Shown here: positions 62,544-63,748 of the stretch, one piece after another | Layout: every line of letters begins with the position of its first letter | How positions within the stretch are numbered: the stretch's first letter is position 1 | Assembly (NCBI RefSeq): GCF_003018255.1 | Contig: NZ_CP027440.1 | Source of the DNA: Escherichia coli | GTDB lineage: Bacteria; Pseudomonadota; Gammaproteobacteria; Enterobacterales; Enterobacteriaceae | Strand: one strand, 5' to 3' | Length of the DNA stretch: 64,000 bases | The notes under the pieces: model-generated | The model's database searches: none | The model's input: only the letters and a program-made list of their open reading frames with translations | What the model was told of the DNA's origin: nothing | Made by a program: the position numbers and the translations under genes

Positions 62544-62639
62544 ATGCTGGGTAATATGAATGTTTTTATGGCCGTACTGGGAATAATTTTATTTTCTGGT
62601 TTTCTGGCCGCGTATTTCAGCCACAAATGGGATGACTAA
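62544..62639 (+). CDS. mgtS: Small membrane protein MgtS/YneM (31 aa), PhoPQ-regulated stabiliser of MgtA
   Basis: ATG at 62544 encodes MLGNMNVFMAVLGIILFSGFLAAYFSHKWDD, preceded by RBS ACGGAGG; below the ORF-track length cutoff. Confidence 0.85.
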   Translation: MLGNMNVFMAVLGIILFSGFLAAYFSHKWDD

Positions 62640-62666
62640 TGAACGGAGATAATCCCTCACCTAACC

Positions 62667-62705
62667 GGCCCCTTGTTACAACTGTGTACAAGGGGCCTGA
62701 TTTTT
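62667..62705 (+). terminator. Rho-independent terminator of mgtS
   Basis: ggccccttgt-N11-acaaggggcc followed by tgattttt. Confidence 0.8.
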
Positions 62706-62714
62706 ATGACGGCG

Positions 62715-62820
62715 AAAAAAAACCGCCAGTAAACCGGCGGTGAATGCTTGCATGGATAGATTTGTGTTTTGCTTTTACGCTAACAGGCATTTTCCTGCAC
62801 TGATAACGGATCGTTGACAC
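62715..62820 (-). ncRNA. mgrR: Candidate PhoP-regulated sRNA MgrR, convergent with mgtS; 5' end approximate
   Basis: Reverse-strand terminator (ccgccggtttactggcgg plus T8) at 62715-62740 and a PhoP-box-like direct repeat GTTTAA-N5-GTTTAA on the reverse strand at 62846-62863, giving a transcript of about 100 nt; not ORF-like. Confidence 0.45.
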
Positions 62821-62857
62821 AGTAGCATCAGTTTTCTCAATGAATGTTAAACGGAGC

Positions 62858-63748
62858 TTAAACTCGGTTAATCACGTTTTGTTCGTCAATAAACATACAG
62901 CGATTTCTTCCGGTTTGCTTACCCTCATACATTGCCCGGTCCGCTCTTCCAATGACCACATCCAGAGGCTCTTCAGGAAATGCGCGACTCACACCTGCTG
63001 TCACGGTAATGTTGATATGCCCTTCAGAATGTGTGATGGCATGGTTATCGACTAACTGGCAAATTCTGACACCTGCACGACATGCTTCTTCATCATTAGC
63101 CGCTTTGACAATAATGATAAATTCTTCGCCACCGTAGCGATAAACCGTTTCGTAATCGCGCGTCCAACTGGCTAAGTAAGTTGCCAGGGTGCGTAATACT
63201 ACATCGCCGATTAAATGCCCGTAGGTATCATTAACCAATTTAAATCGGTCAATATCCAACAACATTAAATAAAGATTCAGAGGCTCAGCGTTGCGTAACT
63301 GATGATCAAAGGATTCATCAAGAACCCGACGACCCGGCAATCCCGTCAAAACATCCATATTGCTACGGATCGTCAGCAAATAAATTTTGTAATCGGTTAA
63401 TGCCGCAGTAAAAGAAAGCAACCCTTCCTGAAAGGCGTCGAAATGCGCGTCCTGCCAGTGATTTTCAACAATAGCCAGCATTAATTCCCGACCACAGTTA
63501 TGCATATGTTGATGGGCAGAATCCATTAGCCGAACGTAAGGTAATTCATCGTTATCGAGTGGTCCCAGATGATCAATCCACCGACCAAACTGGCACAGTT
63601 CATAAGAATGGTTATCCGTTATTTCTGGCTTACTGGCATCTCTCGCGACCACGCTGTGAAACATACTTACCAGCCACTGGTAGTGGGCATCGATAGCCTT
63701 ATTGAGATTTAACAAGATGGCATCAATTTCCGTTGTCTTCTTGATCAT
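62858..63748 (-). CDS. dgcZ: Zinc-regulated diguanylate cyclase DgcZ/YdeH (296 aa), start ATG at 63748
   Basis: ORF trimmed to MIKKTTEIDAILLNLNKAID; GGDEF motif RYGGEEF; recognised. Confidence 0.93.
   Translation of the reverse strand: MIKKTTEIDAILLNLNKAIDAHYQWLVSMFHSVVARDASKPEITDNHSYELCQFGRWIDHLGPLDNDELPYVRLMDSAHQHMHNCGRELMLAIVENHWQDAHFDAFQEGLLSFTAALTDYKIYLLTIRSNMDVLTGLPGRRVLDESFDHQLRNAEPLNLYLMLLDIDRFKLVNDTYGHLIGDVVLRTLATYLASWTRDYETVYRYGGEEFIIIVKAANDEEACRAGVRICQLVDNHAITHSEGHINITVTAGVSRAFPEEPLDVVIGRADRAMYEGKQTGRNRCMFIDEQNVINRV

Follow-up and report, generated by a model that had tools for sequence, protein, structure and literature searches.

The mgtS-mgrR locus

Positions 62420-62900 of the 64-kb stretch of Escherichia coli DNA analysed (the window) are the ydeE-mgtS-mgtT-mgrR-dgcZ locus (Table 1). 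Many E. coli chromosomes match this segment at 100% identity and K-12 MG1655 matches it at 99%; the region is found in 5416 of 5426 complete genomes. The MG1655 features mgtS, mgtT, mgrR and dgcZ transfer onto the window base for base with a coordinate offset of 1,560,102, which is valid only near mgtS. At 33-35 kb the window has a fimbrial cluster that is not collinear with the compared K-12 stretch.

Table 1. Features of the mgtS-mgrR locus, in window positions
Feature	Position	Strand	Basis or remark
mgtS promoter PhoP box (predicted), AATTCA-GCCTT-CGTTTA	62443..62459	+	Cross-genus alignment; upstream half-site degenerate, downstream half-site good
mgtS -10 hexamer, TAATAT	62472..62477	+	TAnTAT conserved 12 nt 3' of the box
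CDS58, 17-codon ORF (MKIKVSEETHHTINGGK) upstream of mgtS	62491..62544	+	TAA stop overlaps mgtS ATG (TAATG)
mgtS (yneM), 31-aa inner-membrane protein gene	62544..62639	+	ORF of 31 codons plus stop; NCBIfam NF033842; RefSeq annotation
mgtT, 34-codon ORF	62639..62743	+	ATG overlaps mgtS stop (TAATG); b4775 in MG1655, mgtT in RefSeq strains
mgtS intrinsic terminator: hairpin A (62667-62697), then UGAUUUUUAU	62667..62707	+	Fold, conservation, Term-seq
mgrR, 98-nt Hfq-dependent sRNA MgrR	62715..62812	-	MG1655 ncRNA b4698; Rfam RF01407; fold
MgrR intrinsic terminator: stem 62741..62722, U-tail to 62715 (7-T run)	62715..62741	-	Terminator scan, fold, Term-seq; doubles as Hfq-binding module
MgrR seed UAUCCAUGCAAGCA (nt 55-68)	62745..62758	-	Published positions; unpaired in fold
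MgrR 5' stem-loop (nt 5-35)	62778..62808	-	MFE structure, Rfam consensus structure
mgrR extended -10, TGC-TACTGT	62819..62827	-	TGnTAnnnT; equivalent site in 70/75 orthologous promoters
Conserved mgrR PhoP box (predicted), CGTTTA-ACATT-CATTGA (H2+H3), at -41..-25	62837..62853	-	Cross-genus conservation; 12 nt upstream of -10
Direct repeat AGTTTA-AGCTC-CGTTTA(A) (H1+H2), about -52..-35; GTTTAAGCTCCGTTTAA as GTTTAA pair 62863..62847	62847..62864	-	Unique in window
dgcZ (ydeH), diguanylate cyclase	62858..63748	-	ORF; NCBIfam NF007380, 521 bits; annotation

MgrR, MgtS, MgtT, CDS58, their control by PhoQP and the convergent layout are all already published, and the locus is part of the K-12 reference annotation. 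With its essentials published, the locus carries little weight as a discovery. It is of more use as a calibration case, in which a small-protein/sRNA pair was correctly recognised by a first-pass annotation made from the sequence alone. All sequence features listed there lie at, or at most 1 nt from, the positions given for them, and the proposed convergence of mgtS and mgrR with tail-to-tail terminators is borne out by K-12 annotation, folds and Term-seq. Two published small open reading frames, mgtT and CDS58, were overlooked. Missing very short overlapping frames is a typical error of such a reading, as is choosing the repeat that looks best as the regulatory element.

mgtS and the overlapping small open reading frames

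Three small open reading frames, CDS58, mgtS and mgtT, overlap serially on the + strand. The 31-codon mgtS frame, which had been correctly delimited to its end at 62639, encodes the peptide MLGNMNVFMAVLGIILFSGFLAAYFSHKWDD. The peptide is 100% identical to MgtS of E. coli K-12 and scores 80.6 bits against the NCBIfam model NF033842 'protein MgtS' (cutoff 35), with residues 1-31 of 31 covered. It thus has the properties that define the family, namely a score over the curated cutoff, a length of about 31 amino acids and a single hydrophobic helix. Upstream, the CDS58 translation is identical to the PIRT-seq peptide of that name (PMC12350097 supplement); conservation of its ATG is absent outside Escherichia.

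The downstream frame, mgtT, crosses the hairpin of the mgtS terminator (hairpin A) and ends within the terminator of mgrR, with which it overlaps at 62715-62743. Ribo-RET with epitope tagging and PIRT-seq have both detected its product, which is present in smaller amounts than MgtS, and published work describes mgtS and mgtT as an operon. The 34-codon form is confined to Escherichia. Coding conservation was not found beyond that genus, the frame varying from 7 to 60 codons in length across genera; the start codon and roughly the first 12 codons do recur, and similarity at the C-terminal end falls on the terminator hairpin and T-run. There is no match to an NCBIfam model. mgtT is still an annotated E. 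coli gene with published evidence of translation. In the window its length and frame are those of K-12, and residue 15 of MgtT is T here and V in K-12 because of two SNPs in the loop of hairpin A.

Terminators between the convergent genes

Both transcription units end in a hairpin of their own. The minimum free energy of hairpin A is -21.9 kcal/mol (z -4.0), a value that no sequence among 200 shuffles equals; together with its T-run it is conserved across genera, with compensatory changes in the stem. A published Term-seq 3' end of MG1655, 1622804(+), corresponds to window position 62702, which is 5 nt past the stem. On the opposite strand, the MgrR terminator folds at -13.7 kcal/mol (z -3.45), and its stem is nearly invariant in 31 sequences. 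Here the published Term-seq 3' end, 1622824(-), has a score of 2.4 million and corresponds to 62722; the annotated end, 62715, lies 7 nt further 3'. On the strength of folds, terminator scan, covariation in hairpin A and published 3' ends, both hairpins are genuine terminators, as the first-pass annotation had proposed for each strand.

Since the mgtT frame spans the mgtS terminator, the forward terminator lies inside an annotated coding sequence. Hairpin A might for this reason be regarded mainly as an attenuator or coding feature of an mgtS-mgtT operon whose true terminator lies past mgtT. Detection of the MgtT protein and the published description of an operon fit such an arrangement, as does the interrupted U-tract of the E. 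coli terminator (UGAUUUUUAU). It is nonetheless improbable. The Term-seq 3' end is located just beyond hairpin A, MgtT is scarcer than MgtS, and the hairpin and T-run persist, with compensatory changes, in genera in which the mgtT frame stops after 7-15 codons, ahead of the hairpin. Moreover, the mgrR hairpin as read on the + strand leads into GAAUGCUUG, which is no U-tract, and therefore no better terminator is visible downstream. Partial read-through reconciles the terminator and the operon views of hairpin A. Most + strand transcripts stop at the intrinsic terminator, their 3' end being 62702, and full-length MgtT can come only from transcripts that read through it. Such read-through transcripts are antisense to mgrR over its 3'-terminal 29 nt.

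The MgrR small RNA

The first-pass annotation had placed the MgrR sRNA on the reverse strand, between the terminator and a direct repeat upstream. Comparison with K-12 gives the same position and the same strand: mgrR of MG1655 (b4698, 98 nt), at 1622817-1622914(-), corresponds to window positions 62715-62812(-) and is flanked by mgtS/mgtT and dgcZ. Neither finding that had been named in advance as refuting the assignment, a map position or strand other than this one or the lack of a PhoP-dependent transcript, was encountered. The covariance model Rfam RF01407 (STnc560, the Rfam name under which MgrR is filed) matches the minus strand over the full model length with 280.2 bits (gathering threshold 55, E 4.6e-65). 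The model is 214 nt long and covers window positions 62633-62846, which include the promoter as far as -34 as well as the strand opposite the mgtS terminator; as it is much longer than MgrR, the boundaries of the match are not RNA ends. MgrR is identical to its K-12 counterpart at 97 of 98 nt, with strand, neighbours, seed, 5' hairpin and terminator all shared. The single SNP is at the unpaired nt 4, which is C here and U in K-12.

The minimum free energy fold consists of a 5' hairpin, an open centre and the terminator, in agreement with the published nuclease-probing model. When orthologous 5' segments were folded alone and compared with shuffled sequences, all 61 distinct orthologues formed at least 7 pairs, with a median z of -2.1. 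On a MAFFT alignment of 31 MgrR orthologues, RNAalifold found the near-invariant terminator alone, since the 5' hairpin varies and does not align by sequence. The seed, U55-A68, is known to pair with eptB, ygdQ and other mRNAs (PMC6239178); cross-genus conservation around it is by construction, as a 19-nt block served as the search pattern. Sequence and fold display the modules of an Hfq-dependent sRNA: the seed is single-stranded, there is an ARN site rich in A, and the RNA ends in a Rho-independent terminator with U-tail. Hfq binding is predicted.

The minus strand does have a 38-codon open reading frame starting with GTG, 62820..62704, with an internal ATG at 62790, from which it could be argued that the transcript encodes a small protein and is not a non-coding RNA. 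There is next to no chance that this is so. The GTG precedes the transcription start at 62812, the stop codon (62706-62704) is past the RNA 3' end at 62715, and the internal ATG is within the 5' hairpin and has no Shine-Dalgarno sequence. MgrR is also known experimentally as an Hfq-dependent base-pairing sRNA. A coding MgrR was rejected since the frame both starts and stops outside the RNA and its internal ATG is without a Shine-Dalgarno. No meaningful open reading frame was found between the reverse terminator and the direct repeat. The earlier statement that the interval has no convincing frame holds. What had been missed is mgtT on the + strand, which crosses both hairpins.

Promoters and PhoP boxes

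Published work shows that expression of mgtS is PhoQP-dependent, and that mgrR is expressed at low Mg2+ in dependence on PhoQ/PhoP; a conserved PhoP-box promoter at mgrR is consistent with this. A promoter scan for sigma-70 -35/-10 consensus found none for mgtS or mgrR, as expected of activator-dependent promoters, and the scan itself is uninformative. At mgtS, the motif rTTCA-N5-yGTTTA, situated 12 nt 5' of TAnTAT, has been kept across about 43 aligned upstream regions from many genera. In the window it has the form AATTCA-N5-CGTTTA, 12 nt and TAATAT, the pattern of an architecture I PhoP promoter, with a box match of only 8/12. Such promoters are defined by a box in direct orientation that resembles (T/G)GTTTA-N5-(T/G)GTTTA, placed 11-12 nt before the -10 hexamer, and by the lack of a -35. 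PhoP would be expected to bind this box, judging from the sequence, and the transcription start is predicted near 62484.

The mgrR promoter adjoins the 3' end of dgcZ, whose TAA stop codon is at 62860..62858. Transcription starts at the G at 62812, the annotated 5' end, 7 nt 3' of the extended -10; the -10 columns of the promoter tally are invariant by construction, as they were used as the anchor. Upstream are three half-sites in phase, AGTTTA (H1), CGTTTA (H2) and CATTGA (H3). The first-pass annotation had assigned the PhoP box, tentatively and from motif spacing only, to the direct repeat that overlaps the dgcZ stop codon. This repeat is present where it had been reported. GTTTAA-N5-GTTTAA has its sole match there in the 64-kb window, against 0.02 expected and a match in 2 of 100 shuffles. 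A loose PhoP-box search with 2 mismatches found 20 sites against 18.6 expected, no better than chance, and weight is carried only by the strict repeat and by conservation.

Conservation favours H2+H3. CGTTTA-N5-CATTGA is conserved across about 70 mgrR promoters of roughly 20 enterobacterial genera; H2 matches at 5/6 or better in 100% of the promoters, and H3 has the form yrTTkA with an invariant TT. With a 12-nt spacing and TACTGT, this is again the architecture I pattern, with a box match of only 8/12, and it is here that PhoP would be predicted to bind. The ancestral mgrR box is thus probably H2+H3, and the register of the assigned repeat, H1+H2, is probably shifted upstream by one half-site (11 bp). 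The conserved signal points to the poorer-looking site at the canonical position and not to the best-looking repeat.

A different assignment would make the perfect repeat H1+H2 the functional box in E. coli, one helical turn upstream in an architecture III-like arrangement (as at rstA and ompX) in which the alpha-CTD of RNA polymerase is needed. Its match to the consensus is 10/12, the better of the two registers, and it is unique in the window; its 3' end is 23 nt from the -10, within the architecture III range of 21-23 nt. With ±1 nt slack, H1-like half-sites are also seen in 22% of promoters, where the background is about 3%. Weighing against these points, H1 is unconserved across genera (mean 2.4/6). 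Only E. coli and E. whittamii have it intact, and it is already AGTTTT or shifted in the Escherichia lineages L018 and L004, whereas H3 keeps its invariant TT and a fixed 12 nt to the -10 in 70 of 70 promoters. Since H1 overlaps the last dgcZ codon and the stop, its sequence is in part dictated by coding, and the dgcZ neighbour is missing from most genera that keep the PhoP-type mgrR promoter. H1+H2 as the functional box is therefore unlikely. H2+H3 is preferred as the core box, and H1 is most likely a third, in-phase accessory site specific to Escherichia.

The E. coli form of H3, CATTGA, is in itself a poor match to the consensus (3/6). PhoP might prefer the upstream pair H1+H2 in this species.

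For work on PhoP promoters, these comparisons offer a modest and testable refinement, in which the box yGTTTA-N5-yrTTkA is universal and is spaced 12 nt from an extended -10, and a third half-site is a lineage-specific addition.

Proposed regulation and related systems

The joint reading, with a probability of about 0.9, is that this is the E. coli mgtS(-mgtT)/mgrR locus, made of two convergent units that are activated by PhoQ/PhoP and help in coping with low Mg2+. That mgtS and mgrR are convergent and both PhoQP-dependent is published. Neither promoter has a -35 element; a direct-repeat PhoP box takes its place in each, with 12 nt between the end of the box and the -10 downstream. At low Mg2+, phosphorylated PhoP on both boxes would recruit RNA polymerase by class II activation, as suggested by architecture I and published work. 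MgrR with Hfq would then base-pair with and repress eptB, ygdQ, pitA and others, and MgtS would stabilise the MgtA importer and act on PitA, both in line with published findings.

The promoters resemble the architecture I PhoP promoters (mgtA, phoP, slyB, pmrD), where a direct box 12 nt before the -10 replaces the -35 (Zwir 2012), as at mgrR and mgtS. They differ in that one half-site of each box is degenerate, CATTGA at mgrR and AATTCA at mgtS. The mgrR promoter has, in addition, an extended -10 (TGn), and in E. coli the third in-phase half-site upstream, giving an overlapping architecture III-like box.

A more speculative proposal, and a long shot, is that the Escherichia-specific third half-site and the read-through mgtT frame create a cis link between the two convergent genes under PhoP control. 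If so, mgtS-mgtT read-through or its antisense RNA might affect how MgrR terminates, how its 3' end forms or how stable it is, or the effect might run the other way. The third half-site might adjust the threshold or the timing at which PhoP activates mgrR as compared with mgtS. No description of such coupling was found in the papers examined.

The pairing of a base-pairing sRNA with a small protein that addresses the same physiological problem under one regulator is also seen in dual-function RNAs of the SgrS/SgrT type. In contrast to these, mgtS and mgrR do not share a transcript but are two genes that converge; according to published work, a fusion of the two, MgtSR, exists only as a synthetic construct.

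The arrangement of the 3' ends recalls the bidirectional terminators of convergent genes, as the two units end within about 13 bp (3' ends at 62702 and 62715-62722). In E. coli, Salmonella and Citrobacter no single bidirectional terminator is shared; there are two hairpins, and each is followed by a U-tract of its own. In Kluyvera, 4-5 nt separate the mgtS stop codon from the 3' end of MgrR, and therefore one hairpin must serve both genes.

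Gene arrangement and identity

Many E. coli chromosomes match the segment at 62420-62900 with 100% identity, and 5416 of the 5426 complete E. coli genomes contain the mgtS-mgrR region. Compared with K-12 MG1655, the window region shows 99% identity and no indels; around mgtS, the window coordinate equals the MG1655 coordinate minus 1,560,102. The 31-codon mgtS ORF, recognized on the first pass, translates to MLGNMNVFMAVLGIILFSGFLAAYFSHKWDD, which reaches 80.6 bits with the NCBIfam equivalog 'protein MgtS' (cutoff 35). The reverse-strand interval that had been assigned to the MgrR sRNA coincides with mgrR of MG1655 and matches Rfam RF01407 on the minus strand (280 bits, gathering score 55). 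RF01407 is titled STnc560, the Salmonella name under which Rfam files MgrR. The model is 214 nt long and the match spans 62633-62846; as the promoter and the antisense strand of the mgtS terminator fall within it too, its boundaries are not RNA ends. The neighboring dgcZ is a 296/298-codon diguanylate cyclase ORF.

Because every component and the arrangement itself are published and annotated in K-12, the locus is already known. What is new is comparative only: the register of the PhoP box, a lineage-specific third half-site, the clade-limited linkage of mgtS and mgrR, and poor conservation of the mgtT frame.

Positions of features at the mgtS-mgrR locus (H1-H3, successive PhoP half-sites upstream of mgrR)
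Feature	MG1655	Window	Strand	Remark
mgtS box AATTCA		62443-62448	+	conserved alignment
mgtS box CGTTTA		62454-62459	+	conserved alignment
mgtS -10 TAATAT		62472-62477	+	TAnTAT conserved
CDS58		62491-62544	+	17 codons, published small ORF
mgtS	1622646-1622741	62544-62639	+	MG1655 annotation
mgtT	1622741-1622845	62639-62743	+	MG1655 annotation; b4775, 34 codons
Hairpin A		62667-62697	+	mgtS terminator hairpin
mgtS message 3′ end	1622804	62702	+	Term-seq
mgrR (ncRNA)	1622817-1622914	62715-62812	-	MG1655 annotation
Dominant MgrR 3′ end	1622824	62722	-	Term-seq
mgrR terminator stem		62741..62722	-	terminator scan
mgrR start G		62812	-	annotated; places H2+H3 at -41..-25
mgrR -10 TACTGT		62824..62819	-	TG of extended -10 at 62827-62826
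H3 CATTGA		62842..62837	-	conserved mgrR box, 12 nt before -10
H2-H3 spacer ACATT		between 62853..62848 and 62842..62837	-	mgrR box
H2 CGTTTA		62853..62848	-	conserved mgrR box
dgcZ	from 1622960	from 62858	-	MG1655 annotation; TAA stop at 62860..62858
H1 AGTTTA		62864..62859	-	one period upstream of H2

Predicted PhoP boxes of the mgrR and mgtS promoters

Low Mg2+ activates PhoQ/PhoP, and mgrR and mgtS, which are transcribed convergently, are both induced. The first-pass annotation had proposed as a PhoP box the repeat GTTTAAGCTCCGTTTAA at 62863..62847(-), which comprises H1 and H2. The repeat does overlap the dgcZ stop codon, and it is the sole match in the 64-kb window (0.02 expected). Comparison of promoters places the conserved box one half-site further downstream. 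An extended -10 (TGnTAnnnT) is present at the equivalent position in 70 of 75 mgrR upstream regions; these were anchored on this motif, and the box was read from the unconstrained columns. The anchored promoters display yGTTTA, within which GTTTA is invariant (68-70 of 70 at each position), then 5 nt, yrTTkA with an invariant TT, and exactly 12 nt before the -10 hexamer. The conserved box is thus H2+H3, which shares only H2 with the original proposal. Its geometry is the same as that of architecture I (Zwir et al., 2012), in which a box in direct orientation precedes the -10 by 12 nt and activation is class II; ancestral PhoP-regulated genes, mgtA and phoP among them, typically have this arrangement.

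The H1 half scores on average 2.4 of 6 across genera, near background. Only E. coli and E. whittamii have it intact; in two other Escherichia lineages the position reads AGTTTT (locus L018) or is shifted (E. albertii). When ±1 nt of slack is allowed, an H1-like site of at least 5/6 is found in 22% of 68 distinct promoters against a background of ∼3%, mainly in Enterobacter as GGTTAA at 12-nt spacing. On these alignments, an upstream third half-site is a recurrent lineage-specific accessory and not part of the conserved core. That PhoP uses H1+H2 at mgrR in E. coli is kept as a live, if rather unlikely, alternative, since this pair ends 23 nt from the -10, the distance of architecture III, and matches the consensus at 10 of 12 positions vs 8 of 12 for H2+H3.

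The mgtS promoter has a conserved rTTCA-N5-yGTTTA located 12 nt upstream of TAnTAT. Both genes are therefore predicted to carry a PhoP box at the canonical position; in each, a strong half-site is paired with a degenerate one, and the order is mirrored between the two genes. Phosphorylated PhoP would bind the -41..-25 boxes and activate by a class II mechanism, with the Escherichia-specific H1 possibly serving as an accessory site.

Terminators and RNA 3′ ends

The back-to-back terminators noted earlier are both functional in vivo, as Term-seq 3′ ends of MG1655 map to each (scores 2,596 on the plus strand and 2,434,090 on the minus strand; Adams et al., 2021, Supplementary file 1). The printed 61-mers, which span -50 to +10 around each 3′ end, were verified against the window coordinates. 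Hairpin A consists of 13 GC-rich pairs followed by UGAUUUUUAU; it folds at -21.9 kcal/mol (z = -4.0), with none of 200 shuffles equally stable, and the mgtS message ends 5 nt beyond it (...GGGGCCUGAUU). The mgrR terminator, a stem with a run of seven Ts, folds at -13.7 kcal/mol (z = -3.45). The dominant MgrR end is the first U of the tail, and the annotated end (U8) lies 7 nt further; the gap could reflect in vivo trimming or a technical or mapping artefact of the U-run.

Hairpin A is kept across genera wherever the spacer exists; a T-run follows in every case, often a better one than in E. coli, and the stem displays compensatory variants (GGCCCCTTG/CAAGGGGCC, CGGCTTCTTACA/TGTAAGAAGCCG, GGCCCTTTACG/CGTAAAGGGCC and AAGCCCGCGGT/ACCGCGGGCTT). 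Whereas Escherichia, Salmonella and Citrobacter have two separate hairpins, in Kluyvera and relatives (loci L010, L048, L055 and L074) only 4-5 nt separate the mgtS stop from the MgrR 3′ end, and one hairpin must therefore terminate both genes bidirectionally.

The MgrR RNA

MgrR is an Hfq-dependent class II sRNA that represses eptB and ygdQ via nt 55-68, altering LPS modification and polymyxin sensitivity; pitA is named as a further target, including in the title of Yin et al. MgtS increases both the amount of MgtA and the intracellular Mg2+. MgrR is 98 nt long with a pairing region at U55-A68 (Kwiatkowska et al., 2018), which in the window is UAUCCAUGCAAGCA (62758..62745). The single difference from K-12 is at nt 4, which is unpaired. 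In the minimum free energy fold, nt 5-35 form a 5′ stem-loop, the A-rich center is open, the seed is unpaired, and a terminator stem (nt 72-91) precedes the U-tail, in agreement with the model that Kwiatkowska et al. (2018) derived from nuclease probing. The 5′ hairpin does not align by sequence across orthologues; all 61 distinct 5′ segments fold with at least 7 pairs (median z -2.1).

Overlapping small open reading frames

Two small ORFs, mgtT and CDS58, were missed by the first-pass map, which was otherwise right as to mgtS, the terminators and mgrR. The mgtT ATG lies within the TAATG that holds the mgtS stop; the frame traverses hairpin A and the U-tract, stops inside the mgrR terminator and overlaps mgrR by 29 nt. 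Ribosome profiling with retapamulin/Onc112 revealed mgtT, epitope tagging confirmed it at levels below MgtS, and PIRT-seq detected it again. It is described as PhoQP-dependent and as sharing an operon with mgtS; MgtT is reported not to be membrane-associated, with no phenotype upon deletion or overexpression. As the mgtS message ends within mgtT, production of full-length MgtT would require read-through of the mgtS terminator. A cis-coupling of read-through mgtS-mgtT transcription with MgrR 3′-end formation, to which only the geometry points, is speculative and unlikely.

Several genera share the ATG within the T[AG]ATG overlap and ∼12 N-terminal codons (MNGDNPxPNRPL). Frame length varies between 7 and 60 codons, with the 34-codon form restricted to Escherichia, and what looks like C-terminal similarity (KGPxF) results from reading the 3′ arm of hairpin A and the T-run in that frame. 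No NCBIfam model matched mgtT. The stretch from the mgtS stop to hairpin A, 62640-62666(+) (TGAACGGAGATAATCCCyCACC), is recognizable across genera even where the frame has 7-9 codons, so MgtT coding alone does not explain its conservation.

The second ORF, MKIKVSEETHHTINGGK, is identical to CDS58 of PIRT-seq. Its TAA overlaps the mgtS ATG in a TAATG, just as the mgtS stop overlaps the mgtT ATG. Only ∼7 nt separate the CDS58 ATG from the predicted start of mgtS transcription, and outside Escherichia this ATG is not kept. A block of the mgtS 5′ UTR, AAGGTAAGnGAGG (62500-62513, plus strand), ∼30 nt upstream of the Shine-Dalgarno, is conserved in most genera; in E. coli it falls inside CDS58.

Distribution of mgrR loci

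A plain-DNA scan with the MgrR seed region, run over a collection of species-representative genomes, yielded 84 loci, ∼79 of which are genuine mgrR genes from ∼20 enterobacterial genera. In 47 of the 79, mgtS is convergent and directly downstream, including loci of Escherichia, Citrobacter, Salmonella, Kluyvera, Kosakonia, Phytobacter, Pluralibacter and Yokenella. In 31 loci, nearly all of the Enterobacter/Lelliottia/Leclercia/Silvania/Huaxiibacter/Siccibacter group (e.g., L005, L011, L066 and L073), the 0.7-10 kb of available sequence downstream of mgrR contained no MgtS-like ORF. These loci retain mgrR and its PhoP-box promoter, and linkage of the sRNA with the small protein is thus clade-specific. 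The upstream neighbor is dgcZ only in Escherichia and Citrobacter.

Enterobacteriaceae bacterium RIT691 (L014, 1438-3050) has two mgrR copies 1.6 kb apart, separated by ORFs of 127 and 177 aa. The mgtS-adjacent copy is an sRNA body without a PhoP-box promoter, the distal copy retains the promoter, and the mgrR 3′ part and adjacent hairpin region are duplicated. The arrangement looks as if an island had inserted at the 3′ end of mgrR and duplicated its target. Contig SMXE01000224.1 ('MAG: Caldithrix sp.') carries mgrR with 100% identical MgtS and 98% identical YdeE and is thus E. coli-like DNA, most likely from contamination or mis-binning.

PhoP-box-like sites at a fimbrial cluster

A zero-mismatch PhoP-box consensus, TGTTTAGTCACGGTTTA, is at 34514-34530(-) (naive expectation ∼0.03 per window), in a 433-bp intergenic region, and is followed ∼275 nt later by a fimA-like major fimbrial subunit gene on the same strand (∼33676-34239, minus). 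Just downstream of this gene is a box with one mismatch, 33508-33524(+). The cluster is not collinear with the fetched K-12 stretch, where only the yneO pseudogene is annotated. The predicted boxes may represent PhoP input into a chaperone-usher operon.
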